DNA from: a bacterium
GTDB taxonomy: Bacteria > Zhuqueibacterota > Zhuqueibacteria > Residuimicrobiales > Krinioviventaceae
Length of the DNA: 64,000 nucleotides
Assembly (NCBI GenBank): GCA_963674595.2
Contig: CAXXFV010000029.1
Coordinates: 1-64,000 of the forward strand
Reading direction: 5' to 3'
Shown one piece after another: positions 6,955 through 61,550 of the stretch. Each line of letters starts with the position of its first letter. Position 1 is the first letter of the stretch. Position numbers and translations under genes: made by a program. Below the pieces are notes generated by a model that saw only the letters and a program-made list of their open reading frames with translations, was not told the DNA's origin and did no database searches.

Positions 6955-7119
6955 ACGCAATCTCATCCTCGTAAGTACTTTTTTACTTCCCATATATTAA
7001 TTTTAAAGGTGGTAAATCAGCAAAAGGTATCAGGCTCTCCCGTGCGCGACCAAATTGTCCTGAAAAATTATCCTTTTGTCTGATAGAATAATGATACAAA
7101 CTTTTTATTTTTCCCGCAA
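6955..7119 (-). ncRNA. Promoter + structured RNA element, copy 1 (3'-truncated)
   Basis: TTGCGG-17-TATCAT, ATCAG start at 7084, hairpin ATCAG-ACAAAAGG..TCAGG/CCTGA..CCTTTTG-CTGAT, then TTACCAC...CGAGGATGAGATTGCG. Confidence 0.7.
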
Positions 7120-7154
7120 GCTGTTTTTACAAAATTTATCCGCCCCCTTTATCA

Positions 7155-7185
7155 CAAAAAAAAGCCCCGCATTCCTGCGGGGCTT
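7155..7185 (-). terminator. Intrinsic terminator ending the phage-like leftward operon
   Basis: AAGCCCCGCAGGAATGCGGGGC followed by a T8 run on the minus strand. Confidence 0.85.
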
Positions 7186-7271
7186 GACAAGCGATTGAAT
7201 TCCATTATGATTGGTTTTCAGCTCAATCGATAATCACCACCTCCTTTTAGAAAAACCGACATTTATAGCTA

Positions 7272-7760
7272 TCATCTCACATCAATCCAAACGCGGGCGA
7301 CGCTGCCCTCAACATCCACATTAATATACAGCGTCGCAATGACATAATCCGCGTTGGAGGCGTCTACCGTGCCGGGGTTGCGCAGGGCTTTGCTGACAAA
7401 GACCCTGTTTTCATCGACAAAAGCGTTGGCCACAAGATCGTAATCGGCGCCGCTAAACAGATCGCCGTCGTCTTTTTTGGCCTTGCCGTCCTCCAGCACC
7501 AGTTGCGCCGGACCGTCCCAGAACAAATCGAACTGAATGCCGTCAAACCCGGCGCTGCTGTTGACGTAAACGTCTATTACGAATTCCGTTGTTTGCGTCG
7601 CCGTCAACACCGCGTTTGTAACAACCACATCGACCAGTTCGGTGGCGCCCTGGTCGTCTATCACTTGAACGACCTTGACATTCTTCAGTTCCAAATTTAT
7701 GTCTGCGGCGCGAACAAATGCGGCCGCCAGCATCAGCAGCATAAAAACTGTCTTATTCAT
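7272..7760 (-). CDS. Secreted cohesin-like domain protein
   Basis: Signal peptide; FVIDVYVNSSAGFDGIQFDLFWD ... IATLYINV resembles the cohesin strand pattern. Confidence 0.6.
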   Translation of the reverse strand: MNKTVFMLLMLAAAFVRAADINLELKNVKVVQVIDDQGATELVDVVVTNAVLTATQTTEFVIDVYVNSSAGFDGIQFDLFWDGPAQLVLEDGKAKKDDGDLFSGADYDLVANAFVDENRVFVSKALRNPGTVDASNADYVIATLYINVDVEGSVARVWIDVR

Positions 7761-8317
7761 TTTATGGCTCCCTGTTGTGATTGTGCGATAAACAAGTCCT
7801 GCAGGTCAATGCCGCGACTGCGGTTGAGGTCATAGATCAGCGAATAAAAAGAGTGGCCGAAATAGCTCCCCTGCCGGTACAGCATTAAAAAATAGTCCTG
7901 AATGTCTACCACGTTATCGAAATTAAAATCGCAATACAGCATGTCGGTGATGCAAAACAGGTCTGCAGCCGGTTGGGACATGCCGGATTCGTTACCGCTG
8001 TTGTCATAGGCGGTCACGCGAAATTCCATCTCTTTATAATATTCGCCGCTAAACTGCGCGGTAAACGCGCACTCGGTAACCGGGTGCAGCAGGTCGGCAA
8101 TTTGCGTATAGCCGCTGTCTGTTTGCAGGTACACGCGGTAACCGGCAATGTCCGGTTCGGTGTTGGGGTCCCAGTGCAGCTTAACGGTCGGGCCGATGGT
8201 TTTGGGCCAGGCCCGCGCCTGCATCATCAGCACCAGCGCCATGATAAAAAACACGGCAAACATGAGCAGCAGCGCCCGGTTGTCGTTGTTCATGAGGTTT
8301 TTCCATGTTGTCTTCAT
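7757..8317 (-). CDS. Fibronectin type III + dockerin-like protein
   Basis: LHWDPNTEPDIAGYRVY...FRVTAYDNSGNES (FN3) followed by duplicated Ca-loop motifs DFNFDNVVDIQDY / DLNRSRGIDLQDL. Confidence 0.75.
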   Translation of the reverse strand: MKTTWKNLMNNDNRALLLMFAVFFIMALVLMMQARAWPKTIGPTVKLHWDPNTEPDIAGYRVYLQTDSGYTQIADLLHPVTECAFTAQFSGEYYKEMEFRVTAYDNSGNESGMSQPAADLFCITDMLYCDFNFDNVVDIQDYFLMLYRQGSYFGHSFYSLIYDLNRSRGIDLQDLFIAQSQQGAIK

Positions 8318-8334
8318 TTAAATGCCTCCAAAGC

Positions 8335-8788: not shown

Positions 8789-9410
8789 CCTTCGACTCCG
8801 CTCAGGGTGACACCCTTTAAAAACGCTCAAGGTGACACTGTTCGCCTTAACCTCTCACAATGTTCACAAAGCTCACAAAGGATGATTTAAATTGGTATTT
8901 CCTTGTGTACGCAGTGTATCTATGCATTCAATGTGCTTTGTGCCCTTTGTGAAAAATCAAACCTAGCCATTCAAAATTTAACTCTCACACCCAACACCGG
9001 GACGCCGAAACCTTGGTGTCCTTTGTGTTAAAAAAATGCGAAACCAATGCATTCGGGATTTCATCCCCAATGCCATAAAGTGTCGCCCTTCGACTCCGCT
9101 CAGGGTGACACCCTTTAAAAACGCTCAGGGTGACCCTGTTCGCCTTAGTCTCTCACAATGTTCACAAAGCTCACAAAGGATGATTTAAATTGTCATTTCC
9201 TTGTGTACGCAGTGTATCTATGCATTCAATGTGCTTTGTGTGCTTTGTGAAAAATCAAACCTAGCCATTCAAAATTTAACTCTCACACCCAACACCGGGA
9301 CGCCGAAACCTTGGTGTCCTTTGTGTTAAAAAAATGCGAAACCAATGCATTCGGGATTTCATCCCCAATGCCATAAAGTGTCGCCCTTCGACTCCGCTCA
9401 GGGTGACACC
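8789..9410. repeat. ~299-bp tandem duplication of a REP-rich block
   Basis: CCTTCGACTCCGCTCAGGGTGACACC at ~8789, ~9088 and ~9386 with near-identical intervening sequence. Confidence 0.85.
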
Positions 9411-9435
9411 CTACTGTCACCCGAAATCTCATAAC

Positions 9436-10113
9436 TCATCTCTGCGATTTGCCCTGAATCTCTACATATTTAAACAACTTTTTGTCCGACCAGCGGTCCA
9501 CCACCCGGGTGTAAATGTCCAGGTCCCGCAATTGTTTGGCGGACAAATTGGTGGTGATGACTGTGGACAGTAAATTGGCGTAACGGTGTTCCACAAAATC
9601 CTCAAAAGCCGACACCGGAAAATCGTGCTGATACTCACGGCCAAAATCATCCAGCAGCAGCAGTTTACAGTTTTTAAACTCGTCCGCTGCCCGGTTTTTC
9701 TGAAAAAACAGGCTGAACAGGTGATTAATGGACGTAAACTTGACGCTGCAAAAAGGCCGGTATTTAACCGGGTGCCAGCCGTCGTTGTATTCGGATTTTA
9801 CAATGTCGCCCAGTGCAAACACTTTTTTGGCGATATAACACAGGGCCGTGGTTTTGCCCACCCCGACTGTGCCGCTGAGCACCAGTCCCCGGCCGGCCAG
9901 GATGTTGTTTTTCAAATCGCTGACATATTCCTCAACCACACTTTTGCCGGCCAGCCGGTCCCCGTCAATGTTCCAGTACAGCGGCCCAATGTCCATGTCG
10001 ATCAAAAACATCCGCAGTTTCTCAGAGCGAAAGGACGCGAACCGTTGTTTGGCCAGCGCCTCTTTGAGCTGAGGGTCGAGTTGTTTTTGTTTTATTACCT
10101 CCGGAATGTGCAT
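9436..10113 (-). CDS. DnaC/IstB-like AAA+ ATPase (helicase loader)
   Basis: Walker A GTVGVGKT, Walker B LLLLDDFG, HRYANLLSTVITTNL; likely start at ATG 10113 after GAAAGGCGG. Confidence 0.85.
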   Translation of the reverse strand: MHIPEVIKQKQLDPQLKEALAKQRFASFRSEKLRMFLIDMDIGPLYWNIDGDRLAGKSVVEEYVSDLKNNILAGRGLVLSGTVGVGKTTALCYIAKKVFALGDIVKSEYNDGWHPVKYRPFCSVKFTSINHLFSLFFQKNRAADEFKNCKLLLLDDFGREYQHDFPVSAFEDFVEHRYANLLSTVITTNLSAKQLRDLDIYTRVVDRWSDKKLFKYVEIQGKSQR

Positions 10114-10963
10114 GTGCCGCCTTTCGCATGTATTTGGCAATGTTGGTTTTGGCGTTTTCCACGGATTTTGCAGGATTGATCAGCATAAACAGACCGCCGT
10201 TGTTGACAAACCACTCCTGCTGTTTGATATTTTCCACCGCCGTTTTCAGGGCCCGAAACCCGGACATCCCTCCTATCATGTCGCCGCTGCAAATCAGCTT
10301 TAACCGCTTGTATAACAAATAATAAGGATCGTCCTCTTTAAACTGATTGCTCGTCAGCATGGCGTCGTATTCCGGATGAATCTCCAGAAACGACTCGATA
10401 AACCGGAAATCCTGCAGCGGAATTGTTTTCACCAATGCTGCTTTATCTTTTACCGGTTCCCTTACCTCTTCCGTTACCGATACCTTTTCCTGTACCTGTA
10501 ACCTGCCGGGCAGGTAACGGTTACCTAAAGGACCGCCCACATCATTCTGCAAAAGAACATCGGAAATAATATAAACATCGTGCAAAAGGTTGTTTTTGCC
10601 GGGTTCTGTGGATTTTTCCAGACAGATAAGGTCCAGCAGACCGTATTTTTGCAGTTCCTTCAGGGCCTGATTTTTCCGGTTGTGCGCGGTGGAGAGCCGG
10701 CCTTTTTCCTGAAATTCCACAAAGCCCACAAACCACAGTTTTTTACCGTTATCGATCTCCAGCATTTTGTCGCCCAGTTCCTGTTTGGCCTTTTCCAGGG
10801 AAAAATCGGGTCCGCAATAAACCTTGAACAGCGCCTCGTTTTTCGCCAGAATGCCCGCGTGAGAGCACTTGTCCCAGAAAAACATGACAAACAATCGTGT
10901 GGGAATATGGGAAATGGACAGCAGCAGCTTTTCCCATTTTTCCGTATCCGTGAGCCGGGTCAT
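10022..10963 (-). CDS. Putative phage replication initiator/replisome organiser
   Basis: Immediately upstream of the DnaC-like ATPase; N-terminal RLTDTEKW wHTH-like start and low-complexity linker. Confidence 0.55.
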   Translation of the reverse strand: MTRLTDTEKWEKLLLSISHIPTRLFVMFFWDKCSHAGILAKNEALFKVYCGPDFSLEKAKQELGDKMLEIDNGKKLWFVGFVEFQEKGRLSTAHNRKNQALKELQKYGLLDLICLEKSTEPGKNNLLHDVYIISDVLLQNDVGGPLGNRYLPGRLQVQEKVSVTEEVREPVKDKAALVKTIPLQDFRFIESFLEIHPEYDAMLTSNQFKEDDPYYLLYKRLKLICSGDMIGGMSGFRALKTAVENIKQQEWFVNNGGLFMLINPAKSVENAKTNIAKYMRKAAHAHSGGNKTKTTRPSAQRGAGQTTVRVLSL

Positions 10964-11262
10964 GACACGGCCCGCTTGAATGAAAACGGATTATTGGTCC
11001 GGGGCAGGGGTGTGAAACCCGCGTCGGCATCGGACTGCTTTATGGCAACCACATCGTCGATATAGTTTTTTTTGAGATTGAGGAACCGGTCCACCGAACG
11101 CTGACCCAGCCACCAGAAATTTTCATCCGGGTCCGTTTCCACCGGCCGAAATGACCAGTCCGGCAGTTTTTTAAACTCGGCCAGAAACTCTTTCCAGGCG
11201 CCCTGATAATCGGATTTTTCAAACTTCCAGAAAATGCCCGTATCTGTTTGCTGAATAATCAT
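10960..11262 (-). CDS. Hypothetical phage protein
   Basis: ATGA-coupled to neighbours, RBS GGGAGG. Confidence 0.65.
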   Translation of the reverse strand: MIIQQTDTGIFWKFEKSDYQGAWKEFLAEFKKLPDWSFRPVETDPDENFWWLGQRSVDRFLNLKKNYIDDVVAIKQSDADAGFTPLPRTNNPFSFKRAVS

Positions 11263-11732
11263 CGTTCCTCCCCGCCTGTATGGCAGTCTTTATACACGTT
11301 CATCCAGTCGTGATAAGCGCTGATTGGGAAATCCGGATCGATCTCGTTAATCAGCGCAATCATTTGGTTTATGATGCCCATCAACTGGTCCCGATTGGTA
11401 TGCTCTTTTGAAATGGAAAACACCTTTTCCGTGACGGTGATTGAGCCGTCCAGATTGCGGACTTTGTGCCGGCGTTTGTTAAAGTTCTCCTCGACAAAAT
11501 CGATGCCCTGCCGCAGGGTGAATCCCCGGCGGTCCACCAGCCAGTCTTTGATGAGGTGTCCGACCAGGTATTTATACTGCGGCCAGGACGCGTCCCTGCG
11601 GTATGTCGCCACCGACACCAGGATTTTCTGTCCCTCCCGGGCTTTGAGCTTGTGCTCGAAATTGTGTTTATTGTACCAGGGCACCGGCTGCCCGTTTTTA
11701 ACAATACACGGATGGTTTTTGATAATGTTCAT
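11259..11732 (-). CDS. Hypothetical phage protein (weak NinB/Orf-like pattern)
   Basis: RDASWPQYKYLVG motif; translationally coupled to the downstream gene. Confidence 0.55.
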   Translation of the reverse strand: MNIIKNHPCIVKNGQPVPWYNKHNFEHKLKAREGQKILVSVATYRRDASWPQYKYLVGHLIKDWLVDRRGFTLRQGIDFVEENFNKRRHKVRNLDGSITVTEKVFSISKEHTNRDQLMGIINQMIALINEIDPDFPISAYHDWMNVYKDCHTGGEER

Positions 11733-12010
11733 TTGTTCCGCCGTTCAAATGAAATTTATTTTAATTAAACGGTAGGGCGTGGTCCTGCCGCACCGTTGCA
11801 CTGTTCTTCGTCCCACCCTTCGACTCCGCTCAGGGTGACACCGCTCTCCTTAGTCTCTCACAATGTTCACAAAACACACAAAGGATGATTTTAAAATACT
11901 ATTCCTTTGTGCCCTTTGAAAAATTAAATCTCTCCGCTCGCAGGGGATTTGCAATCCCCGGCGGAACCAATGGATTCGGGATTTCATCCCCGATGCCATA
12001 AAGTGTCTCC

Positions 12011-12895
12011 CTTCGACTTATCTCAATGTGACACCTTTCAACAACATTATTATACCTTAAACGCAGAGGCGCAGAGACCGCCGAGGTTCGCAGAGTTTTA
12101 AAAATTCAACATAACCGACACCTCAACTCATTTTTTAAGCATTCATATCAATCCTGTCCAAATTTTCATTGTGACCTTTGTGCCTATGCATTTAAACAAA
12201 TTCATAATCACCGAAAAATTTTAACACCACCGATGCACATGCCCAACCACCTTTGTGCCCATTGTGTTAAAACAATATCCTCTGCGAACTTGAAAAAATC
12301 CTAAAAATTCATCTTTTCCGGTTCATCGAATCCCACCTTAAAATTGCGTACAATGCGGTTGATCAACGCCACCTTTACCGTCATGTCCGAAAATGCCGAT
12401 TTCACCGCTCCCTGCAATGCCGACAATCCAATTACATTGCTGCCGCCCAGCAAAATCTGCGCAAACTCGGCAATATCCGTATCAATCGTTATCGTCAAAC
12501 TCGCATTTTCAATCAGCGTCTTGGCAACCAGGATTTGCGTATCCTTGGCCGGAGTTTTGTTATTGTTCACATCTTGCCTCTTTTTTTACACAAAATTTTC
12601 ATCCGTAACTGTATCGCTCTGTTCTACGTCCCACCCTTCGACTCCGCTCAGGGTGACACCTTTCAACAACATTATTATACCTTCAACGCAGAGGCGCAAA
12701 GGCCGCCGAGGTTCGCAGAGTTTTAAAAATTCAACATAACCGACACCTCAACTCATTTTTTAAGCATTCATATCAATCCTGTCCAAATTTTCATTGTGAC
12801 CTTTGTGCCTATGCATTTAAACAAATTCATAATCATCGAAAAATTTTAACACCACCGATGCACATGCCCAACCACCTTGGTGTCCTTTGTGTTAA
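12011..12895. repeat. ~260-bp direct repeats (12011-12270, 12637-12895) flanking one small gene
   Basis: Near-identical blocks ...GACACCTTTCAACAACATTATTATACCTT...GCCCAACCACCTT. Confidence 0.85.
12301..12570 (-). CDS. Hypothetical protein
   Basis: GTG start with AGAGG RBS; lies between the direct repeats. Confidence 0.55.
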   Translation of the reverse strand: MNNNKTPAKDTQILVAKTLIENASLTITIDTDIAEFAQILLGGSNVIGLSALQGAVKSAFSDMTVKVALINRIVRNFKVGFDEPEKMNF

Positions 12896-14523: not shown

Positions 14524-14611
14524 TCCTCCCCTTTTTAAACCTTCACCACAACAAACCATTCACCCCGTAAATTTCGTGCGTAAAAAAAGTTATAAATTCA
14601 TTAAAAACCGC

Positions 14612-14837
14612 TTGCACAGTGCCGACAAAATTTGTATAATTACTTTATCAGTAAAAGAGGACTGTTTTCAGAACAATATGGTCGGACATGGGAGTTCTGA
14701 AGACATTGACTGATTTACCACCTTAAAAAATTACATTCGGGTAGTCACTGCACTTGCGAGGAAGAGATTGTTGCGTCGGAACCATCATCATATTCCTGTT
14801 ATTTCGTGTTTATATATTTGGGTTGGGTGGGGTGTGG
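14612..14837 (+). ncRNA. Promoter + structured RNA element, copy 2 (full length)
   Basis: TTGCAC-17-TATAAT, ATCAG at 14647, TGTTTTCAGAAC/GTTCTGAAGACA stem, AGGAA/TTCCT stem, 3' TTTGGGTTGGGTG. Confidence 0.75.
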
Positions 14838-14970
14838 GTATAAATTGCCAGCAGTGGCCTGTTTAACTAATAAATTTAAGGACTACTGTAAAAAATTAAC
14901 TTTTTATTTAAAACCTTTAACAGAATTATAGGCTTATCGAAATCAGACAAAAAAATATTATTTTGGGATT

Positions 14971-15870: not shown

Positions 15871-16000
15871 GGTCCTGCCGTAGAATGCGGATCTACCTCA
15901 CCATTTATGGAGTACAAAGAGAAAATAGCACATCGGAGCCATAAAACTGCACCCTACAGCTGATAAATATTAAAAGTATCTATTGTGTAAATTTTAATAG

Positions 16001-18322: not shown

Positions 18323-18326
18323 CAAT

Positions 18327-25951: not shown

Positions 25952-26320
25952 GTTTAGTAAGGATTGTAAAATAAAACTCTTTACTAGCCCCGGAACTTCT
26001 TTTCCGGGGCGCACTTGGATGGGGTATTTACCCCGCGTAGATAAATGGCCGGGTTCCCTTTTGCAGCCCGGCAATAAAATAACCGGCGAAATATAAAACT
26101 GTCATTCTGTAAGAATCCTGCCGGGATTAAGAACCTAAAGTCAGCAAGATGCTTCCGGCATGACATGTTGTTTTTTCGTCCCTGTTTCATGGGTTCCGCA
26201 GAGGAATGCAAATCCCCTGCGAGCCAAGAAATCCCACCTCCTGCCCCGCAACCCCTTACTCCACAATCCGAAACAGCACATTTCGTGCGGGGAAAAAGCA
26301 CTAAATTCTTGAAAAACCAC

Positions 26321-26535
26321 TTGCACTAATGACTCAAAATTTGTACCATTATTTTATCAGCTATAAAGGATTGTTTTAAGAACAATTGGGTCTACGAGGG
26401 AGAATGTTCACGTCCTTTGGCTGATTTTCCACACATACAAACGGGCTTGTAAAATTCGAGGAATCGATTGTGCCGATTACAAAATCACATTCCTTTTATT
26501 TCACATTCACAATTTTTGGGCTGGGTGAGGTGCGT
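26321..26535 (+). ncRNA. Promoter + structured RNA element, copy 3
   Basis: TTGCAC-17-TACCAT, ATCAG at 26356, ATCAGCTA/TGGCTGAT, AAAGGAT/GTCCTTT, GAACA/TGTTC, GGAAT/ATTCC. Confidence 0.75.
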
Positions 26536-35466: not shown

Positions 35467-35694
35467 GTATGGTACAATTAACAAGGCCCGGGATTCGTTA
35501 CTCCGCGTTTTGAGAATGTTTCCCGGGACGCACGTAGGCAGAGATAATTTTAACGTTATGGAAAAGGAATTTCAAGAGGATCAAACCAGGCAGGGATTAA
35601 AAACTTTACACCCCTGCCCTGCTGCACTTTTAATCCACAACCACAGACAACACATTTTGTGCGGGAAAAATGTGCTAAATTCTTTAAAAACCAC

Positions 35695-35915
35695 TTGCAC
35701 TAATGAGCCAAAATTTGTAACATTATTTTATCAGTTCTAAAGGATTGTTTGAAGGACAATTGGGTCACACGTGGGAAAAGGTTCAGGTCCTTTAGCTGAT
35801 TTACCACACATACAAACGGGCTTTATACACACACGAGGAATAGATTGCGTCGGTCACAAAATCACATTCCTTTTGTTTCACATTCACAATTTTTGGGTTG
35901 GGTGACGTGCGTTCG
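35695..35915 (+). ncRNA. Promoter + structured RNA element, copy 4
   Basis: TTGCAC-17-TAACAT, ATCAG at 35730, TAAAGGAT/GTCCTTTA stem, GGAAT/ATTCC, TTTTTGGGTTGGGTG. Confidence 0.75.
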
Positions 35916-44535: not shown

Positions 44536-44747
44536 ACGCACCCAACCCAAAAACGCCGGATGTGAACCAACAGGAATATGATTATGTGATAAACGCAATC
44601 TCTTCCTCGTGTGTGTGTATGAATCCCATATCTGTGTGTGGAAAATCAGCAAGGACGCCAGGAACTCCCAGACTCGACCAAATTATCCTGTAAACTGTCC
44701 GTTATAGCTGATAAATTAATAATACAAATTAAATAAAATCAAGGCAA
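44536..44747 (-). ncRNA. Promoter + structured RNA element, copy 5
   Basis: Minus strand TTGCCT-17-TATTAT, ATCAG at 44712, ATCAGC/GCTGAT, GGAC/GTCC, CAGGA/TCCTG, CGAGGAAGAGATTGCG, TTTTTGGGTTGGGTG. Confidence 0.75.
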
Positions 44748-44896
44748 GAGGTTTTTGAAAAATATTAAAAATAATTGATGGCCCAAAAAAAGCAGAGACG
44801 CACGGCCGTGCATCTCTACCAATGTGCGTCCCCGCTCGCGGTATCAAAAGTTCTTGAGCTGACCCTTTGTGTTCTTTGTGCCCTTTGTGAGAGAAT

Positions 44897-44963
44897 ACCC
44901 CCCTGCACTATTTTCAACATTTCTCAAAAATTCCTTGCACCAATGACACAAAATTTGTAATAT
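44897..44963 (+). promoter_or_regulatory. Promoter-only copy of the element (no RNA part) upstream of SatD
   Basis: CCCCCCTGCACTATTTTCAACATTTCTCAAAAA upstream block, then TTGCAC-17-TAATAT. Confidence 0.7.
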
Positions 44964-44982
44964 AATTCCATACTATCCAATA

Positions 44983-45057: not shown

Positions 45058-45084
45058 GCAGTAATAAAGAGAATAGGTATAAAA

Positions 45085-46473: not shown

Positions 46474-46623
46474 AACACTTTATTTCACATAACAATGTGC
46501 GGCACTTGACTGGCAGGCGGTATTTCAATTTCAGAAGATGAGCGCCAAAATTTTTCAAGAACAATCCAAATAGTGGGTAAAAATCTCCCCCCTGCACTAT
46601 TTTCAACATTCCGCAAAAATCCC

Positions 46624-46826
46624 TTGCCTTGATTTTATTTAATGTGTATAATTATTTATCAGATACAAGGCGTGTTTTTAGGACGATTGGGTCGGACATA
46701 TGAGTTCTGAAAACCTTGACTGATTTACCACTATTTTTTTAAATACGGGTTTTAACAGCACACACGAGGAAGAGATTGCGCTATAGCTATAATCATATTC
46801 CTGTTGGTTCACGGTCTCAAATTTTT
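46624..46826 (+). ncRNA. Promoter + structured RNA element, copy 6
   Basis: TTGCCT-17-TATAAT, ATCAG at 46658, both hairpins present, diverges after GGTCTCAAAT. Confidence 0.75.
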
Positions 46827-48431: not shown

Positions 48432-48530
48432 ACACAAAAGGATAATAACGTGTATTATCCTTTGTGTTCTTTGTGCCCTTTGTGAGAGAATCCCCCCCCT
48501 GCACTATTTTCAACATTTCTCAAAAATCCC

Positions 48531-48738
48531 TTGCCTTGATTTTAATTAATGTGTATAATTATTTATCAGATACAAGGCGTGTTTTCAGAACAATATGGTC
48601 GGACATGGGAGTTCTGAAAATCCTGACTGATTTACCACTATTTTTTTAAATACGGGTTTTAACCACACACACGAGGAAGAGATTGCGCTATAGCTATAAT
48701 CACATTCCTGTTGGTTCACGGTCTCAAATAGTTGGGTG
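48531..48738 (+). ncRNA. Promoter + structured RNA element, copy 7
   Basis: TTGCCT-17-TATAAT, ATCAG at 48565, TTTTCAGAAC/GTTCTGAAAA stem. Confidence 0.75.
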
Positions 48739-49208: not shown

Positions 49209-49210
49209 CC

Positions 49211-49504: not shown

Positions 49505-49624
49505 CCGCAGCGTGCGGCGTCACCCTGAGCGGCCTTTCGGCTCTGCTCAAGGACCGAGTCGAAGGGTGGCCAAGAAACCAGTCCATTCCCCCCTGCACTA
49601 TTTTCAAAATTTCTTAAAAATCCC

Positions 49625-49784
49625 TTGCCTTGATTTTAATTAATGTGTATAATTATTTATCAGCTACAAGGCATGTTTTCAGAACAATATGGTCGGACAT
49701 GGGAGTTCTGAAAACCTTGACTGATTTACCACTATTTTTTCAAATACGGGTTTTAACCACACACACGAGGAAGAGATTGCGTCG
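49625..49784 (+). ncRNA. Promoter + structured RNA element, copy 8 (3'-truncated)
   Basis: TTGCCT-17-TATAAT, ATCAG at 49659; similarity ends after GAGATTGCGTCG. Confidence 0.72.
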
Positions 49785-49817
49785 CTCAGTATAATATTAT
49801 AATTCAAGGAGATTAAA

Positions 49818-50544: not shown

Positions 50545-50546
50545 CT

Positions 50547-50840: not shown

Positions 50841-50963
50841 CCATAGCGTGCGGCGTCACCCTGAGCGGCCTTTCGGCTCTGCTCAAGGACCGAGTCGAAG
50901 GGTGTCCTAGCAAGCAGCACATTCTCCCCCACACATTTATTTTCAACATTTCTTAAAAATCCC

Positions 50964-51180
50964 TTGCCTTGATTTTAATTAATGTGTATAATTATTTATC
51001 AGAAAGGCGTGTTTTCAGAACAATATGGTCGGACATGGGAGTTCTGAAAACCTTGACTGATTTACCACTATTTTTTTAAATACGGGTTTTAACAGCACAC
51101 GAGGAAGAGATTGCGCTATAGCTATAATCATATTCCTGTTGGTTCACGGTTTCAATTATTTTGGGGTTGGGTGGGGTGTG
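50964..51180 (+). ncRNA. Promoter + structured RNA element, copy 9 (full length)
   Basis: TTGCCT-17-TATAAT, ATCAG at 50998, both hairpins and TTTTGGGGTTGGGTGGGG tail. Confidence 0.75.
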
Positions 51181-52548: not shown

Positions 52549-52563
52549 TTGACATATTGTCAA
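52549..52563. promoter_or_regulatory. Palindromic operator candidate for the HTH-fused methyltransferase
   Basis: TTGACA-TAT-TGTCAA, 19 bp upstream of the ATG. Confidence 0.65.
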
Positions 52564-52582
52564 TTTTATTCCCAGAGGATAC

Positions 52583-53842: not shown

Positions 53843-53855
53843 GATTTTATAAGTA

Positions 53856-54323: not shown

Positions 54324-55521
54324 AGGATTTCTTTCAAATTATTTCAAAGGTATAGCAGCCAAATATTTAAGCTCGGTTGAAACTCATCCAGAAAATTCAA
54401 ATCAACATGAATTCAATGGAATTGCCGCCTTAAAAACAATACTTGGTGAGTCAAAATATACTTTTAGCTCAAGAATTCTCTATTTGGGTTCAGACGAAAA
54501 CGATATTATTTCAACTGAATGCAAGCTTACATGGTATGACGCAAGAGAAAGCCACCCGTCTCGCTCGGAATACCGCCTATATTTCCAGACTAATCCAGTA
54601 CTTGAACAAGCTGATATTGGAGATTTACTCATCATTGGTCTTACAAGCGATGATACATTATTTATAGTGATTGCGAAAGCAAATACAACTTATGAATCAC
54701 AACTTCGTTGGCTATTCGCTCTTGATGAAATAGGTGAGCGTTTCAATGTTCGAAAAATCGAGGATAAAAACGACTTTCAGTTAAATTTCTCGATCAGATA
54801 CATATTTGATGAACTAGGAATCGAGATTAAAGAAAAAGCTGATGATTTTCTTGATTTGTTAATACAACGTTTTGAGGATAATTTCCCGACAACACATGAT
54901 TTTTCAGATTTTGCACGACAAACATCAGATCCAATCACAATTTTTGATGATCCAGATACTACAATTGTTAACTGGATAGATCACGAAGAAATGTTGTTTC
55001 GAACGTTTGAAAAACATCTCGTGTCACAAAAATTGGATGAAGGTTTTAACGATGTTGATGAATTTATAAGCTATTCTCTCAGTATACAAAATCGTCGAAA
55101 ATCCAGAGCAGGCTTTGCTCTAGAAAATCATCTAGAATATCTTTTTCTTCAAATGAATGTTGATTATTCAAGAGGGAAAATGACCGAAAACAGGTCAAAA
55201 CCTGATTTCATCTTTCCCGGTATTAGTCAATACCAAGACAATAACTTTCCAAATAACAACCTTACGATGCTTGGTGTAAAATCAACGTGTAAAGATAGAT
55301 GGCGACAAGTATTATCTGAAGCCTCTAAAATAAAAAAGAAACATTTATTTACACTGGAACCTTCGATATCATGTAATCAAACTGACGAAATGATTGCGAA
55401 TAATTTACAACTTGTTCTTCCAGAAAGTTTGCATAATTCCTATCAAAGGAGCCAGCGTATCTGGCTTATTAATTTAGCAGAATTTATAAACATTGTCAAA
55501 ATTCGTCAAAAAAACTCGTAG
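54301..55521 (+). CDS. Type II restriction endonuclease, EcoRII-C-terminal-domain family
   Basis: NRRKSRAGFALENHL, KPDFIFP, KSTCKDRWRQVL. Confidence 0.88.
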   Translation: MKAKQMIKGFLSNYFKGIAAKYLSSVETHPENSNQHEFNGIAALKTILGESKYTFSSRILYLGSDENDIISTECKLTWYDARESHPSRSEYRLYFQTNPVLEQADIGDLLIIGLTSDDTLFIVIAKANTTYESQLRWLFALDEIGERFNVRKIEDKNDFQLNFSIRYIFDELGIEIKEKADDFLDLLIQRFEDNFPTTHDFSDFARQTSDPITIFDDPDTTIVNWIDHEEMLFRTFEKHLVSQKLDEGFNDVDEFISYSLSIQNRRKSRAGFALENHLEYLFLQMNVDYSRGKMTENRSKPDFIFPGISQYQDNNFPNNNLTMLGVKSTCKDRWRQVLSEASKIKKKHLFTLEPSISCNQTDEMIANNLQLVLPESLHNSYQRSQRIWLINLAEFINIVKIRQKNS

Positions 55522-55705
55522 CCCCACTCAACATCCAACAAACAAACAAAATAGAAAAAACCATTATTTAAAATTTGCAGTTAAACAAAAATTCGCTCAA
55601 TATCTGTTGGGCCCACAAAGCGAGCCCACCCCACCCGATTAAATCCTCCCCCCCTCCCCAAAAACCCCTTTATTAACCATCTAAAATTCCGTATATTATA
55701 AAACC

Positions 55706-56905
55706 ATGAACAGCTATCAACAACTTTTTAATACAACGAATCCGCACATTCGGGACGGCCAGATCGGGCTGCTGTGTAATCAAACGGCTTTTGACGCAGG
55801 AAGCGGCACGTATCTGTTTCAGCTATTGGCTGAAAAGTTTAACCTGAAACGGTTGTTTTTCCCGGAGCACGGTTTGTTTGCCGAGCTGCAGGACCAGGTG
55901 CCGCTGGACTCGTCCGAAGCCTATCGTTTTTTAAACATGGACTGCGAGTTCCGCTCTCTGTACGGCAGCACGGACAAAACCCTGCGGGTGGACGCGGCAG
56001 ACCTGTCCGATTTGGATGCGCTGATTGTGGATATTCAGGACGTTGGCAGCCGCTATTACACCTTTGCCACCACGCTCAGTTATCTGCTGGAAAAAATTGC
56101 CGCGCACAAACCGGGCCTGCTTGTGTATATCATCGACCACCCCAATCCGGCCGGGCGCAAGGTGGAAGGCACGCCCCTGGACCCTGTGTACGAGTCCTTT
56201 GTCGGGCGGCCGGGTCTGGTGCACCGGCATGGTCTCACCATTGGTGAGCTGGCGCTTTTTTATCAGCACCAGATCGGCGCACACCTGAATTTAGAGATTG
56301 CCAGATACACCACAACCGGCGCGTCTGGCCTCACCACCTGGGACGTCCCTCCTTCTCCCAACATGCCGGGGCCATACACGCCCCTGGTTTATACGGGTCA
56401 ATGTTTGCTGGAGGGCACGAACCTGAGTGAAGGACGGGGCACCACGCGTCCTTTTGAAATTTTCGGCGCGCCTTTTCTAACGAACACGTTCAAGGTGAAC
56501 GCCTGGCCCCATGAACCGGGCGCGGTGCTGAGGCCGTTAAAATTTATCCCCACGTTTCACAAACACGCGCAGCAGGTGTGCAGCGGATTTCAGGTCCATC
56601 TCACAGGTCCATCCTACAACTCGCTGGCCCATTCGCTCAAGTTTTTGCGATATGTGAAGGACCATTTTTCAGCCTTTGAATGGCGCACGGAAGAGTATGA
56701 ATTTATATCCGACAAACCGGCCATAGAAATCCTTGCCGGTGACGAGGCGCTGATCAGCTATCTGTACGGGGAGGAAAAATATTCAGCGGTCCGCGAAAAA
56801 ATGACACAGGAGGAACAAAAATGGATGGACACGGCGTCGCAGTTTTTGCTGTATCCGCAGCCGCTTTTTCGGGCGGACCTAAAGCCGGAGTTTGATTACG
56901 CCTGA
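55706..56905 (+). CDS. DUF1343 / NamZ exo-beta-N-acetylmuramidase family protein
   Basis: PEHG, DIQDVGSRYYTF, RHGLTIGELA, PPSPNMP, EGTNLSEGRGTTRPFE. Confidence 0.88.
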   Translation: MNSYQQLFNTTNPHIRDGQIGLLCNQTAFDAGSGTYLFQLLAEKFNLKRLFFPEHGLFAELQDQVPLDSSEAYRFLNMDCEFRSLYGSTDKTLRVDAADLSDLDALIVDIQDVGSRYYTFATTLSYLLEKIAAHKPGLLVYIIDHPNPAGRKVEGTPLDPVYESFVGRPGLVHRHGLTIGELALFYQHQIGAHLNLEIARYTTTGASGLTTWDVPPSPNMPGPYTPLVYTGQCLLEGTNLSEGRGTTRPFEIFGAPFLTNTFKVNAWPHEPGAVLRPLKFIPTFHKHAQQVCSGFQVHLTGPSYNSLAHSLKFLRYVKDHFSAFEWRTEEYEFISDKPAIEILAGDEALISYLYGEEKYSAVREKMTQEEQKWMDTASQFLLYPQPLFRADLKPEFDYA

Positions 56906-56948
56906 ATCAAGTGACGGGTTATCAGCATATTAGCGCTTAATAAAAATT

Positions 56949-57668
56949 ATGATTAATAGACAGACAATTACATATTCAACATTAGTTGTTTACTTTTTCT
57001 CAATAATGATATTGATAATGGTTGTATTTTTTAAATTATTTTTATCCATTATTTTTGGGCCGTTTATTGATATGTTGGCAATGATTGGGGCCTTTATATT
57101 ATCATTATTATCCTCTCTACTATTGATTTTTTTAATAAAGAAAAGTGTAATATACAAAGTCATTCCGATTCTTATTCTAATTACGCTTTGTTTAATATTC
57201 TTTTCTCCTTTACGATTTGATTTTTCCAGAAAACTTTATTATCAAATAAATAAAGGTCGGTTACATAAAATTGAAGCAATCCTAAGTGAGAATCCAGAAA
57301 TTGAAGAAATGTCTGATTTACAAAGGCATCATAAAAATATAAATGAGAAATCTTTTTCTGATAAAGATATAGTCAAAAATAAAAAGCAAATTCAAGCAAA
57401 GTTTGGTGATTATTTAAAAGAAACACATATTGATATCGATATCATAGTTCAGTTACGTAATTTAATGGATAGGTCTGAAATTATAGAGATTAGAAATTAT
57501 GATAAATATTTATTGTGCACGATTGATGGATTTATTGATAATGAATTTGGAGTTCTTAAACTTAAGGATGGTACTCTAAAAGAAGGAGATTCTATTGAAC
57601 CATGGGGATTTAGAATTGTTACCCTTGAAGAAATAGGAGATGGCTGGTATTATTGGGCAGCAACGTAA
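56949..57668 (+). CDS. Hypothetical membrane protein
   Basis: Three N-terminal TMs, C-terminal IGDGWYY. Confidence 0.7.
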   Translation: MINRQTITYSTLVVYFFSIMILIMVVFFKLFLSIIFGPFIDMLAMIGAFILSLLSSLLLIFLIKKSVIYKVIPILILITLCLIFFSPLRFDFSRKLYYQINKGRLHKIEAILSENPEIEEMSDLQRHHKNINEKSFSDKDIVKNKKQIQAKFGDYLKETHIDIDIIVQLRNLMDRSEIIEIRNYDKYLLCTIDGFIDNEFGVLKLKDGTLKEGDSIEPWGFRIVTLEEIGDGWYYWAAT

Positions 57669-57980
57669 CTGAGAAATAATTTCGTTAGGTGCATTTTTCG
57701 GTTCGTGCGTCAACAACCAAATCTGCTCATTACCTTGCGTCTGTTGCACTAACAAATGCATTCACTTGAAAAAAGGGTAAATTTTAAAATCCAGAAAAAT
57801 TGTGCGGCGGGTCAAAACTTAATTATTTCAAAACGGATGAAGCGAAGCCAGCCATTTTTCAAGTGATGCTCGTCGTTAACACGTTTTCACTTGCATTTTA
57901 GGTCACTTTTAATTATTGTTAACCTGACAAGATTTTAAAATTTCCCAATAGAACAACTCATCAACCATTAGAGGAGTCAC

Positions 57981-58523
57981 ATGAAAAAACTAACATTATT
58001 TTTAACCGCAGCGCTTTTTATAACTCTGCTGCAATCCTGTACCAATACCGATAAAAAGCTCTATGGGACCTGGAAACTGGACACAAAACAATCGACCGAT
58101 CTTGTTACCTGGAGATACCGACAGCTTGAAGTGAATATTGAAAAAAACGAACAGGGTGTGGTAAGCATCGTTAACAACTGGATGGAGCGCGGCAAAGTTG
58201 CCAATATCGATTCCATGGCGTTTGTTCCGGGACAGGGCGTTACTGAAATTCCTGTCACGTCACAAATCTGGCCGGAAAACTGGTACATGGGTGTTTTGGC
58301 AAAACTGGGCACCATGAAAAAAGCAAGCGGCGAATGGCAGGAACCGGACCGCAAGCTTGCAGTAACACGGGAACTGACCGTGGAAATATCACAGGGCGAT
58401 ACCGTATTTGAAACCACTTTTGAATATTCTTTGGACCGGCGCGGCGATACCATGACCATTATTGAAAAAAGATCAACACGCCCAACGCCCATAACTCTAG
58501 TTTTAACCAGAGTTGTCGAATAA
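57981..58523 (+). CDS. Lipoprotein, hypothetical
   Basis: GAGGAG RBS, LQSC lipobox, YGTWKLD lipocalin-like start. Confidence 0.75.
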   Translation: MKKLTLFLTAALFITLLQSCTNTDKKLYGTWKLDTKQSTDLVTWRYRQLEVNIEKNEQGVVSIVNNWMERGKVANIDSMAFVPGQGVTEIPVTSQIWPENWYMGVLAKLGTMKKASGEWQEPDRKLAVTRELTVEISQGDTVFETTFEYSLDRRGDTMTIIEKRSTRPTPITLVLTRVVE

Positions 58524-58561
58524 CATTTAACAAAAGACCTGAAATTGTGAAAGGAAATAAT

Positions 58562-60169
58562 ATGATTAAATATAAATGGCTTGCCCTGTTATTGGCGCTC
58601 ATTTTTGTTGTTCCGGTATTCAGTCAGACAGCCGATGAAATGTATGTAATGACCCTGGATAACAACTGGGAAATTGACGGCGATCTGCCGACCAAAGCGA
58701 TGCTGATCAGTCTTCAGGGTGTGGCGAATCTGGATGCCCCGCGGCTCTACTTTTTGTATCCGCAAAAATGGGATTTTAAATTTTCCGAACCGCTGATGAA
58801 CTATTATAATACCTCACGCAATATGGAGTTTACCCCGCTGACCACGCCCGAAGAGGCCCTGGAAAAACTGAGCCGTTTTGTAAAAGGCTATGTTGTTTGG
58901 GACAAATCAGAGCGCACGTCGCTGATTGTTGCCTTTACCGCCGCCGGTCAATACGAGTCCATTATTGTTTCGGAAGAACTGATTCCATTGGCTGAAAAAT
59001 ACGGTCTGAAAATGAAAGCCGATTTTCGCGGTCAATTTACGGGTCAGAGTGATTATGAAATTTATACCTGGGCCTATAAAGAATATTGGAAAAACTGCAG
59101 CCGCGATTACCTGGTTTATATGGGCGGCGAGCACGGCAAAATTATGAAACCGGGTATTGCTGATTTTGGTATCCACAAAAAAGCGTTTTTCACCGACGCT
59201 TCCACCAATCCTGCTGACACGCTGGAATATCATTTTGCCAAACGCTTGTTCCGTGAAATGAAACCCATGAGCCTGGTTATGGGATGGCATTCCTATAAAA
59301 AAGACAAAGAAGCCCAGCACGCGCGTTTGGCTTCCAACTATGCATTGCGTATAGAAGGTTTGCACACGCTGCCGAATATGAGTTTTAACCATCAGATTGG
59401 GTTAACGCCCGGATACAAGTTTAAAAACAATCACAGTGTTGAACCCGGCAAAGAATATGTTCCGGAAAACAAAGTGTACCTGGCCTGCATTCAAACAGAC
59501 TGTCTCGGACTTGGCGCCTGGACCGAACCCGGCCGCGGTGATATTCCATACGCATGGGAAGTGACCATGAACTGGTCATGGCTGGCCCCGGCCATGCTGC
59601 AGTTTTTTTATGACGAATCGACCCCCAACGACTATTTTATCGGTTCGCTTTCGGGTCCCGGATATATGTACCCCAAGGCCATTCCTATGGAGTATTTGCC
59701 GGAAACCGTGGAAAAAGCTTACGAGTTGATGCAAACCCTGGACCTCAATTCTTTTGAACTGATGGAGCACACCAATTATTGGGAAACCGACGGTTTGGAT
59801 GACGATATTACCGAAGAGGTTATGGACGAATATTATAAAGGCATGCCCGACGCAATCGGATTTGCCAACGGTTACCGTCCGGCCCATACCTTTGCCGTTA
59901 AAAACGGTGTTCCTTTTATCTCTTTTGATTATTATTTGTCTGAAAAACGTGACGAAGACGAAGCCGCCGCCGATATTATTGAGCTGGCTAATTTGAACAG
60001 CAACAGGCCCTATTTCTGTCTGCTGCACGTTCGTGAATTCGGTCATATTGAACGCGTAAAACGGATTCTCGGCAAACTCGGTCCGGACTTTGAGCTGGTG
60101 CCGCTGGATGTCTTTTTCAAAATGGCCGGTAACAATCCGACCTACACAACGCGATACGCTGAACAATAG
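58562..60169 (+). CDS. GxGYxYP-domain putative glycoside hydrolase
   Basis: Signal peptide, SLQGVAN, SGPGYMYP motif. Confidence 0.82.
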   Translation: MIKYKWLALLLALIFVVPVFSQTADEMYVMTLDNNWEIDGDLPTKAMLISLQGVANLDAPRLYFLYPQKWDFKFSEPLMNYYNTSRNMEFTPLTTPEEALEKLSRFVKGYVVWDKSERTSLIVAFTAAGQYESIIVSEELIPLAEKYGLKMKADFRGQFTGQSDYEIYTWAYKEYWKNCSRDYLVYMGGEHGKIMKPGIADFGIHKKAFFTDASTNPADTLEYHFAKRLFREMKPMSLVMGWHSYKKDKEAQHARLASNYALRIEGLHTLPNMSFNHQIGLTPGYKFKNNHSVEPGKEYVPENKVYLACIQTDCLGLGAWTEPGRGDIPYAWEVTMNWSWLAPAMLQFFYDESTPNDYFIGSLSGPGYMYPKAIPMEYLPETVEKAYELMQTLDLNSFELMEHTNYWETDGLDDDITEEVMDEYYKGMPDAIGFANGYRPAHTFAVKNGVPFISFDYYLSEKRDEDEAAADIIELANLNSNRPYFCLLHVREFGHIERVKRILGKLGPDFELVPLDVFFKMAGNNPTYTTRYAEQ

Positions 60170-60177
60170 ATAATTTT

Positions 60178-60206
60178 AAGCCCTGATCTTTCAGGGCTTT
60201 TTTTTT
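60178..60206 (+). terminator. Intrinsic terminator
   Basis: AAGCCCTGA-TCTT-TCAGGGC followed by a T9 run just after the stop codon. Confidence 0.85.
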
Positions 60207-60309
60207 GGAGGGGTACCTGCTTTGGAATAATGCTGTTTTTTCTACAACTGATTCAATATATCTCTCACAAAGGCACAAAGGTCACAGAGAAATAAAAAAC
60301 ATCAATCCA

Positions 60310-61325
60310 GTCCTTTGTGTCCTTTGTATATTCTTTGTGTTCATTGTGGTAAAAAGATAACCATTTAAAAAGCCTCAGCACAGAGCCGAAGGGTGACTGG
60401 ATTCCTACTTGCGCAGGAATGACAAGTTTCGATCACATTGTGTCCTTTGTGTGTTCTTTGTATTCATTGTGGTAAAAAGATAACCATTAAAAAAAACCAC
60501 AGCACAGAGCCGAAGGGTGACTGGATTCCTGCTTGCGCAGGAATGACGGGTTTCGAGCACATTGTGTCCATTGTGTATTCTTTGTGTTCGTTGTGGTAAA
60601 AAGATAACCATTTAAAAGAGATTCAATGCGGAGTCGAAGCGGGAGCAATGTCGAGCGGATGTCACCCTGAGCGGAGTCGAAGGGTGCCCTCATCCTAAGC
60701 AAAGCCGAAGGGTGGCTGGATTCCTGCTTGCGCAGGAATGACGGGTTTCGAGCACATTGTGTCCATTGTGTATTCTTTGTGTTCGTTGTGGTAAAAAGAT
60801 AACCATTTAAAAGAGATTCAATGCGGAGTCGAAGCGGGAGCAATGTCGAGCGGATGTCACCCTGAGCGGAGTCTAAGGGTGTCCTCATCCTGAGCGGAGT
60901 CGAAGGGTGACTGGATTCCTGCTTGCGCAGGAATGACAAGTTTCGATCACATTGTGTCCTTTGTGTGTTCTTTGTATTCATTGTGGTAAAAAGATAACCA
61001 TTTAAAAAGCCTCAGCACAGAGCCGAAGGGTGACTGGATTCCTGCTTGCGCAGGAATGACGGGTTTCGAGCACATTGTGTCCTTTGTGTGTTCTTTGTGT
61101 TCATTGTGGTAAAAAGATAACCATTTAAAAAAAACCACAGCACAGAGCCGAAGGGTGACTGGATTCCTGCTTGCGCAGGAATGACAAGTTTCGAGCACAT
61201 TGTGTCCATTGTGTATTCTTTGTGTTCGTTGTGGTAAAAAGATAACCATTTAAAAGAGATTCAATGCGGAGTCGAAGCGGGAGCAATGTCGAGCGGATGT
61301 CACCCTGAGCGGAGTCTAAGGGTGT
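60310..61325. repeat. Tandem mosaic REP cluster (CGTC-type: GTCATTCCTGCGCAAGCAGGAATCC and GTCACCCTGAGCGGAGTCGAAGGG)
   Basis: Six GGATTCCT(G/A)CTTGCGCAGGAATGAC palindromes alternating with TTGTGGTAAAAAGATAACCATT units. Confidence 0.88.
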
Positions 61326-61362
61326 CCCCCTACACTTGTATTAAACATTTCTCAAAAACCAC

Positions 61363-61550
61363 TTGCGCCAATAACACAAAATTTGTAATATGTATTATCA
61401 GCCATAAAGGACGATTTTTCAGGACAATTCGGTCGGATATGGGAGTTCATGAAAACCTTTAGCTGATTTACCACCTTAAAATTTATATATGGGAAGTTAC
61501 AGCACTTGCGAGGAAAGATTGCGTCGGAGTTATAATCATATTCCTGTTGT
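61363..61550 (+). ncRNA. Promoter + structured RNA element, copy 10
   Basis: TTGCGC-17-TAATAT, ATCAG at 61397, ATCAGC..TAAAGG / CCTTTA-GCTGAT, AGGAA/TTCCT. Confidence 0.75.

Follow-up and report, generated by a model that had tools for sequence, protein, structure and literature searches.

A probable family of promoter-coupled, structured 5' leaders ahead of accessory genes in a KSB1-like bacterium

Why do ten similar intergenic sequences, dispersed over 64 kb of one bacterial contig, each stand at the head of an otherwise unrelated gene or operon? This question is raised by the stretch C29:1-64000 (referred to as the window, 64,000 nucleotides in total) of a KSB1-like metagenome-assembled genome (MAG), which has a size of 6.6 Mb, comprises 37 contigs, and is 97.6% complete with 5.1% contamination. 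A preliminary description of the window had proposed that each of these sequences combines a promoter with a structured RNA that begins at the predicted transcription start. All components of this interpretation that can be tested in silico held in the computational analysis presented here. The sequences probably constitute a lineage-restricted family of cis-acting, promoter-coupled, structured 5' leaders.

Copies of the element and their promoters

A search of the window with the regular expression TTGNNN-N16-18-TANNAT-N3-9-ATCAG yielded exactly the ten copies that had been listed before, eight on the forward and two on the reverse strand. Their -35 boxes start at positions 7119 (-), 14612, 26321, 35695, 44747 (-), 46624, 48531, 49625, 50964, and 61363. 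In each copy, the spacer between the promoter hexamers is 17 nt long and ATCAG follows 5-6 nt past the -10 box. A ten-way alignment has a mean column identity of 67%; the -35 and -10 hexamers are invariant, the spacer sequence is free to vary, and an A-tract lies 5' of the -35 box. The alignment also contains the conserved blocks of the preliminary description, namely the ATCAG/CTGAT closure and the AAT-NN-GGTC-N-GGGA loop of hairpin 1, TTWCCAC, GGG, and CGAGGAA..GATTG..ATCAYATTCCT of hairpin 2. Two of its statements have to be narrowed. Hairpin 2 has lost its 3' half in copies 1 (7119, -) and 8 (49625). The loop of hairpin 1 is near-invariant in general, except that copy 6 carries ATGAG where the others have GGGAG. 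The tail TTTGGGYTGGGTG is present in five of the ten copies (2, 3, 4, 5, and 9), and the U-rich run noted 3' of hairpin 2 in copies 3 and 4 was recovered. All ten copies are followed by a co-oriented open reading frame (ORF). By inspection, loop indels among the copies disrupt any common reading frame.

The family is larger than first noted and comprises about 100 copies in the host genome. A profile built from the ten window copies gave 104 matches (E<1e-3) on 20 of the 37 contigs, 68 of them near full length; the contigs with most copies are C29 (23), C26 (11), and C13 (10). A covariance model restricted to the RNA (R1, with 162 positions and 28 base pairs) found 71 matches in a search of the genome, and 85 at E <=1e-3 within 77 fetched stretches. 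Compared pairwise, 68 copies have a median identity of 72%. Values above 90% occur only between neighbours (the four copies at 46.6-51 kb of the window and two copies on C23), and the best value for copies on different contigs is 88%. In four DNA sequencing runs, contigs break at the repeats and join different copies; this is indistinguishable from the assembly effects of a 100-copy repeat, and no conclusion was drawn from it.

Among the genomes searched, the family was seen in the host genome alone and is lineage-restricted. R1 gave no match in 40 relatives (18 of the same family and 22 of the same order; 71 candidates scored per genome) nor in 150 genomes across the phylum (19 candidates scored per genome), and a BLAST search with copy 7 gave none in 42 genomes of the same order. 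A composite motif, which recovers 17 copies in the host genome, had no match in 185,579 species genomes and none in metagenome contigs. A looser pattern for hairpin 2 alone had four metagenome matches, which agree with hairpin 2 by construction. These were rejected: the best of them lacks a hairpin 1 on its 5' side and resembles coding sequence, and the agreement of the other three is confined to the stretch fixed by the pattern. The blastn searches of plasmids and of 50,697 phage records gave no match. Note that the set of 199,900 species contains no other species of the host's genus; the closest match to the host NusG, among MAGs labelled KSB1 or Calditrichota, has an amino-acid identity of 88%.

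The coupling to the promoter was assessed with a profile of the RNA part that lacks the promoter columns. It gave 84 matches, 69 of which start at the 5' end of the model; the other 15 are 5'-truncated local matches and were left out of the promoter count. In all 69 cases, TTGNNN-N16-18-TANNNT lies directly upstream, with a spacer of 17 nt in 63, 18 nt in five, and 16 nt in one of them. The -10 box ends 4-5 nt ahead of model position 1 in 61 of the 69, and no more than one or two nucleotides separate the stem of hairpin 1 from the predicted +1. As in the window, the hexamers are conserved genome-wide and the spacer sequence is variable. Promoter-only relatives do exist (e.g. 44909-44974 of the window), and about ten more partial profile matches in the genome end within the promoter part. 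Upstream of the 16S gene on contig C3, four near-identical rRNA promoters are arranged in tandem (AAAAA-CTTGAC-N17-TAYYTT; in fuller form AAAAAAG-CTTGACA-N17-TAYYTT). By this common form, the leader module, with its A-tract and TTGC-N17-TAnnAT sequence, is of the organism's housekeeping-sigma promoter type.

Based on a crude ORF caller, the downstream ORF is co-oriented in 99 of the 104 copies, so that the non-random orientation seen in the window extends to the whole genome. Of all copies, 78 lie in tandem and co-oriented with the flanking genes, none in tandem and opposed to them, 21 between divergent and five between convergent genes; two overlap with an ORF. A replication-strand bias cannot account for the ratio of 78 to 0, and the orientation hence follows the genes. 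Together with the near absence from ORFs and the conservation of the hexamers around a free spacer, this ratio argues for selection for promoter function. The predicted 5' untranslated region (UTR) has a median length of 327 nt (interquartile range 269-412, n=60), and the leader makes up its first 160-220 nt.

Two hairpins supported by covariation

Hairpin 1 consists of three parts, P1 (ATCAGY/RCUGAU), P1a (AAAGGA/UCCUUU), and P1b (UCAGGA/UCCUGA), and carries the conserved loop AAU-NN-GGUC-N-GGGAG. It is followed by the conserved single-stranded blocks UUUACCAC and GGG, then by hairpin 2 (C-AGGAA-GA-UU / AA-UC-UUCCU-G) and, in about half of the copies, by a G-rich tail. When 68 copies were folded singly by minimum free energy (MFE), their first 78 nt mostly adopted the same three-part hairpin, as judged by eye. 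Compensatory variants of hairpin 1 include CAGGGC/GCCCUG, UCGGGG/CCCCG, and ACAGAUUGU/ACAAUCGGU.

Compensatory changes had been proposed on the basis of the ten window copies, and covariation supports both hairpins when the 85 distinct copies are compared. In the R1 alignment, which was fitted to the covariance model itself and for this reason favours the observed pairing, standard pairs occupy 86.8% of the cells compared to 81.1% in shuffles; none of 500 shuffles reached the observed value. Changes on both sides were found in 25 of the 28 pairs, and the number of double-changed cells is 130, with 44.1 expected. When the 3' partners were slid by 1-3 columns, the pairing fell to 29-57%. Furthermore, G-U cells outnumber A-C cells (183 vs 83), which favours folding of the sense strand, i.e. 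the one transcribed in promoter direction.

Alignments based on sequence only were less informative. Applied to MAFFT alignments, RNAalifold yielded a weak consensus (-4.12 kcal/mol, 21 pairs, 2 compensatory) or, with 68 sequences, none. Because the indels of hairpin 1 misalign the stems, the structure was set by hand and a covariance model was used. Mutual-information and helix scans of the MAFFT alignment were too noisy; in the R1 alignment, eight of the 40 top-ranked mutual-information pairs belong to the given structure. No convincing pseudoknot or linker helix was found in the R1 alignment, except for an AAGU/ACUU helix in about nine copies. A candidate middle hairpin formed by CCA/GGG pairing was rejected, as its occurrence in 27 of 46 copies is not above the control mean of 0.58.

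In line with the statement that the element belongs to no recognised RNA family, Rfam 15, which covers riboswitches, T-box, 6S, SRP, tmRNA, and known ribozymes, gave no match at gathering score in the 64-kb window. At E values of up to 10, there were two chance-level matches (E 3 and 9.4) in 14560-14900 and none in 44450-51300. A subset of the leaders (e.g. C29:233581, C29:68508, C18:109420, and C13:63162) possesses a further conserved hairpin, GGTGCCGGTTC..CCGCACC, 3' of the tail, and another subset has a common TATCAAA..CGTTCAATACTATGT ahead of the start codon. These subset-specific additions suggest that the leaders are modular.

The window copies, their cargo and neighbouring repeats

The genes headed by the leaders are heterogeneous. 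The 101 first downstream proteins fall into 85 similarity clusters, and there is no common neighbouring protein among them. Pfam assigns 160 families to 100 of these proteins; the commonest is the sorting domain of the type IX secretion system (T9SS; 11 of 100), followed by PAS/histidine-kinase, restriction-enzyme, and methyltransferase domains. No recombinase, nuclease or reverse transcriptase family of guide-RNA systems is among the 25 commonest of the 160. The cargo has a GC content of 35.7%, compared to 39.2% for all ORFs (Mann-Whitney p=7e-10). Its heterogeneity and low GC content fit the earlier suggestion of acquired genes and lend indirect support to the conclusion that the downstream genes are accessory or acquired cargo. 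For an apiosidase-like cargo gene, homologues in five relatives have at most 32% identity, and no orthologous locus was available for a comparison of synteny. In the window, the cargo includes three HigB/helix-turn-helix (HTH) pairs, an outer membrane protein (OMP) beta-barrel, a Schlafen/AlbA_2-Dcm-Vsr-EcoRII cluster, a SIR2-TPR protein (29005-31236), Ig-like/DUF4962 proteins, a T9SS esterase, a GFA protein, and many proteins without a family.

Copy 1 (6920..7145, -) has an UP-like A-tract, the -35 box TTGCGG (7119), the -10 box TATCAT, and ATCAG at 7084. Its hairpin 1 spans 7084-7016, hairpin 2 is represented by the 5' half from 6970, and the ORF at 6697-5582 follows (R1 score 103.1 bits). 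Copy 2 (14590..14838, +) contains TTGCAC-17-TATAAT (14612-14640), ATCAG at 14647, hairpin 1 at 14647-14714, hairpin 2 at about 14758-14797, and a G-rich tail at 14817-14838; it heads an operon that starts at 14971 (125.2 bits). In copy 3 (26300..26532, +), the promoter starts at 26321, hairpin 1 occupies 26356-26425, hairpin 2 (26458-26494) is followed by TTTTATTT, and the tail lies at 26513-26532; the genes from 26696 onward are downstream (124.2 bits). Copy 4 (35675..35909, +) is composed of a promoter from 35695, hairpin 1 at 35730-35800, hairpin 2 at 35835-35871, and a tail at 35890-35909, and precedes the genes from 36411 onward (131.5 bits).

Copy 5 (44536..44770, -), with the promoter from 44747, hairpin 1 at 44712-44645, hairpin 2 at 44608-44572, and a tail that extends to about 44536, heads the genes at 44025-40576 for an Ig-like protein, a T9SS esterase, and a Y1_Tnp-like ORF (146.2 bits). 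Divergent from it, a promoter-only relative (44909..44974, +) consists of the same UP/-35/-10 module without ATCAG and hairpins; it heads a SatD-like gene at 45034.

The next four copies are neighbours. Copy 6 (46598..46822, +; TTGCCT-17-TATAAT from 46624, hairpin 1 at 46658-46724, hairpin 2 at 46766-46802; 143.6 bits) precedes the OMP beta-barrel gene and a HigB/HTH pair. A HigB/HigA-like pair follows copy 7 (48505..48735, +; promoter from 48531, hairpin 1 at 48565-48631, hairpin 2 at 48673-48709; 143.8 bits), and a second such pair follows copy 8 (49599..49790, +; promoter from 49625, hairpin 1 at 49659-49725; 104.5 bits). Hairpin 2 of copy 8 (from 49767) ends after the 5' half, and at the break there is a small ORF with its own AAGGAG site. 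Copy 9 (50938..51178, +; promoter from 50964, hairpin 1 at 50998-51061, hairpin 2 at 51101-51137, tail at 51159-51178; 136.3 bits) heads genes for Schlafen/AlbA_2, Dcm methylase, Vsr, EcoRII-C, and further proteins. The four named proteins are encoded at 51386-55521 and form a cluster of defence type, in which the methylase is a C5 cytosine methylase fused to an HTH domain, Vsr a mismatch endonuclease, and EcoRII-C a nuclease. Copy 10 (61337..61560, +) contains TTGCGC-17-TAATAT from 61363, hairpin 1 at 61397-61467, and hairpin 2 at 61510-61545, has no tail, and precedes GFA and tocopherol-cyclase-like genes (156.0 bits).

Other repeats occur in the same surroundings. A REP-like motif, CMYCCTSAGCR, is found 13 times in the window, with 0.19 expected, and 84 times in the genome. 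Sites in the window are located at 49520-49570, 50855-50905, 8799-12655 (-), and 42644 (-). The motif lies at most 260 nt upstream of nine of the 104 leader copies, always in sense orientation, and in the 46.6-51 kb stretch it is found at the 3' end of short toxin-antitoxin units. Just 5' of copy 10, at 60260-61330, there is a tandem array of seven to eight units of 124 or 195 nt, each with a REP-like hairpin GTCACCCTGAGCGG..CGAAGGGTG. The array is covered 50-91x in the best DNA run, compared to about 7x nearby, which indicates that the unit is multi-copy; the ORFs called within it (60487-60981 and 60947-61249) are probably spurious. The ORF at 40576-41121 (-), with 181 aa, matches Y1_Tnp (IS200-like/RAYT-like) weakly, and there are eight such ORFs in the genome. 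Four of the five weak-scoring Y1_Tnp matches (C23:98086, C29:40834, C26:88206, and C16:568611) are downstream of leaders and may share transcription units with them. A second repeat consists of a hairpin CAGAGGTcccaACCTCTG followed by GATGCAGGAAATTAAAGACTTTGCCTTTAT and is located at 51270-51330, 28842-28909, 31223-31287, and 41141-41200 (-); according to the coordinates, the last three copies lie between genes inside operons. Across the genome, it has at least ten more weak matches, with E values of 1.6e-4 to 9.6e-3, and it has no Rfam match at gathering score.

Interpretation and comparison with known systems

The arrangement of the leader suggests how it might act. Transcription would start at or beside the A of ATCAG, and the mRNA would open with the long three-part hairpin, followed by the single-stranded blocks and hairpin 2. 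That hairpin 1 is so strictly placed at the predicted +1 agrees with a role that depends on the 5' end, either protection against RNase E/G or a co-transcriptional action on the polymerase. A hairpin at the very 5' end may protect the transcript against the 5'-end-dependent attack of RNase E/G, a domain of which is encoded in the host genome (E 9e-104), as are RNase III and Rho; the C-domain of RNase J was not found in this genome. The RNase III domain match (C27:421343-421737, -) is split across two frames (profile positions 1-90 and 83-127), which could stem from an error of assembly or from a frameshift in rnc. That the loop, the linker, and hairpin 2 are conserved implies that something recognises them specifically. 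Hairpin 1, the unpaired motifs, and hairpin 2 might jointly provide one common surface on which a single trans-acting factor docks, either a protein or RNA polymerase itself. The outcome would be a high and co-ordinated expression of the acquired genes. This mechanism of a stabiliser and factor platform is the one preferred here; taken alone, it is possible but doubtful, and transcription of the leader, its start site, an effect on stability or elongation, and any partner are inferred. A STAB-SD-like role of the G-rich tail was considered and rejected, as its duplex with the 3' end of 16S rRNA has the same energy as that of shuffled tails (-6.6 vs -6.6 kcal/mol; 27 copies located by regular expression). 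The likeness of the tail to a Shine-Dalgarno (SD) sequence is hence only compositional.

Several observations weigh against the reading of the family as functional leaders. The covariation comes from paralogues of one genome with a common ancestry, a limitation that arises because the searches found the family in no other genome. The MFE z-scores of the ten window copies range from +0.51 to -2.52, with values below -2 in two of them. The hairpin's fixed spacing from the -10 box could reflect inheritance rather than selection, and none of the 13 listed sequencing runs is on record as RNA. For a pure stabiliser, the conserved loop, linker, and hairpin 2 would be superfluous. Copies 1 and 8 head genes without half of hairpin 2, which may be dispensable. 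A candidate partner protein was not identified; a specialised NusG paralogue was rejected, as the host has two NusG-family genes, the same number as relatives without the element.

Put-like processive antitermination was ranked as the main rival. Here, the nascent leader would bind its own polymerase, as in HK022 put or Bacillus EAR, and make it resistant to Rho-dependent as well as intrinsic termination in foreign operons that are long, AT-rich, and poorly translated. The element is indeed strictly promoter-proximal, has two covarying hairpins with conserved unpaired nucleotides, and heads low-GC operons of up to about 10 kb (e.g. 14971-25951 and 51386-60169), the long 5' UTRs of which would be open to Rho; moreover, antitermination needs no protein partner, which matches the absence of a co-occurring gene. 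We nevertheless consider it unlikely: the leader has no likeness in sequence or model to any Rfam family, its hairpins are about 45 nt apart whereas those of put are adjacent, about 100 sites per genome far exceed known systems of this kind, and single short genes such as the toxin-antitoxin pairs headed by many copies do not require it. A put-type RNA consists of two stem-loops immediately downstream of a promoter; its context, an early operon of a lambdoid phage, is not seen here, where the phage records gave no match and the cargo consists of cellular accessory genes. A wider notion is that the leader is a self-sufficient RNA adaptor which reprograms the polymerase or recruits a dedicated factor, such that AT-rich foreign operons escape Rho-mediated silencing. 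This is rather unlikely too, and it would imply an antitermination or licensing regulon of about 100 sites for horizontally acquired genes that evolved in a single KSB1 lineage. A further rival, of which the preliminary description had named the attenuator, is an attenuator or riboswitch that responds to a ligand or protein, with hairpin 2 and the U-rich run as a regulated terminator. The U-rich sequence 3' of hairpin 2 (CCUGUURUUUC; UUUUAUUU in copies 3 and 4) and the aptamer-like conservation of loops and linker would agree with it. Yet the segment from hairpin 2 to the start codon contains a terminator-like site in one of 67 leaders, compared to 94 of 887 co-oriented control gaps, which makes a classical attenuator unlikely. 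Moreover, the strong terminators of the window at 60178-60199 and 44820-44791 are GC-rich, whereas hairpin 2 is rich in AU and interrupted; the 160 Pfam families of the cargo share no pathway, and known riboswitch classes are not confined to one genome. Pairing between P1a and hairpin 2 was the only antiterminator that could be drawn; it was rejected, given that hairpin 2 does not change along with the covarying P1a. All in all, an attenuator or riboswitch is very improbable. The least credible idea is that the copies are small RNAs acting in trans, or guide/scaffold RNAs as had also been put forward; the variable hairpin 2 loop and hairpin 1 tip would agree with it. There is no common recombinase, nuclease or reverse transcriptase in the neighbourhood, no terminator bounds a short RNA, and the orientation is always toward a gene. 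In the case of IS110 bridge RNA, TnpB/IscB omega RNA, and retron msr, a cognate gene lies adjacent; the 85 clusters formed by the 101 downstream proteins contain no such constant neighbour.

The remaining alternatives take the hairpins as DNA signals. The element could be a selfish or neutral intergenic repeat that carries a promoter and spreads via hairpins in single-stranded DNA, similar to the Correia elements of Neisseria or to the REP and PATE elements that are moved by Y1 transposases. Lineage restriction, high copy number, and clustering in repeat-rich islands beside REP-like hairpins agree with this, as do the eight Y1_Tnp-like ORFs, some possibly inside leader-headed units; G-T wobbles are tolerated in hairpins of single-stranded DNA, too. 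What makes this quite improbable is the lack of sharp ends, as the pairwise homology blocks, counted from the predicted start, have their 5' ends anywhere from -226 to -19 and their 3' ends from +126 to +265, and the identity of at most 88% between dispersed copies, which speaks against a recent burst. The tandem orientation of 78:0, the near absence from ORFs, and the conserved hexamers with a free spacer point in the same direction. No terminal inverted repeat or target duplication was noticed, and no formal search for them was made. Miniature inverted-repeat transposable elements, REP, and PATE have constant termini, young near-identical dispersed copies, and an orientation independent of genes, none of which was found here. 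With variable ends and old copies, an active transposon is unlikely; the data favour old copies that are held by selection and have spread via duplication or recombination with the promoter attached. Even less probable is a non-canonical recombination site for an integron integrase, with leader-plus-gene units as mobile cassettes. A full integron integrase gene at C3:115823-116767 (-) (TIGR02249, 453.7 bits, cut-off 265) does lie directly downstream of a leader (C3:116978-116781), hairpin 1 resembles attC in its layout (an outer 6-bp box, an internal loop, a bulged inner stem, a variable tip, and a length of about 70 nt), and HigB/HigA pairs are typical cassette genes. The boxes of attC have the consensus RYYYAAC..GTTRRRY, and chromosomal integrons carry a repeat sequence that is species-specific. 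The element lacks these boxes, and ATCAGY/RCTGAT closes hairpin 1 in all window copies. It is located 5' of genes, has its own promoter, occurs on both strands of 20 contigs, typically many kb apart, and its homology ends are variable instead of lying at a fixed crossover point. There is no cassette array beside intI on C3, and a crude genome scan for canonical attC-like hairpins gave 42 scattered candidates and no cluster.

If the cis-acting leader is functional, about 100 unrelated accessory, defence, toxin-antitoxin, and secreted-protein operons of one uncultured FCB-group bacterium would be under a single promoter-leader design, which would provide one shared post-initiation control point for acquired genes and a ready-made expression part for a phylum without genetic tools. 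RNA biology would also gain a new structured family whose 85 diverged paralogous copies with compensatory changes are sufficient for structure modelling. Should the element turn out to be no more than a repeat with a promoter, it would remain an exceptionally clear example of promoter supply by repeats.

Structured 5' leaders and promoter-bearing repeats are each known as kinds. To our knowledge, there is no parallel for the combination of about 100 promoter-locked copies in one genome, covarying helices, and heterogeneous low-GC cargo, and the titles and abstract openings of the literature searched contain no description of such an element. With 5'-terminal stabiliser stem-loops such as the ompA 5' UTR and the aprE and ermC leaders of Bacillus, the leader shares a hairpin that begins at the predicted +1 and a host that encodes RNase E/G; these stabilisers, in contrast, are short and gene-specific, have no conserved loops, linker or second hairpin, and do not form a multi-copy family. 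In riboswitch and T-box regulons, too, one conserved and structured leader recurs 5' of many transcription units within a genome, whereas the leader studied here has no expression-platform terminator, no common cargo pathway, and occurs in one genome among those searched. The attC sites of integrons resemble it in that an imperfect hairpin of about 70 nt recurs next to various accessory genes of an IntI-encoding genome. It differs from them by the absence of R''/R' boxes, by its promoter and position 5' of the gene, and by its dispersal over both strands without an array at intI. Promoter-bearing repeats (Correia, pneumococcal BOX, REP/BIME) are also high-copy, lineage-specific, intergenic, foldable, and a source of promoters; compared to these, the leader has variable ends, a uniform 78:0 orientation, and old diverged copies with compensatory changes, and inverted termini or target duplications were not noticed, albeit without a formal search. 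HK022 put and Bacillus EAR, finally, are cis-acting, promoter-proximal hairpin RNAs with conserved unpaired nucleotides at the head of long operons, as is the leader. They are present in one or two copies per genome compared to about 100 here, and the leader is set apart from them by its linker of about 45 nt, the lack of Rfam similarity, and a context that is neither a phage nor an eps operon.

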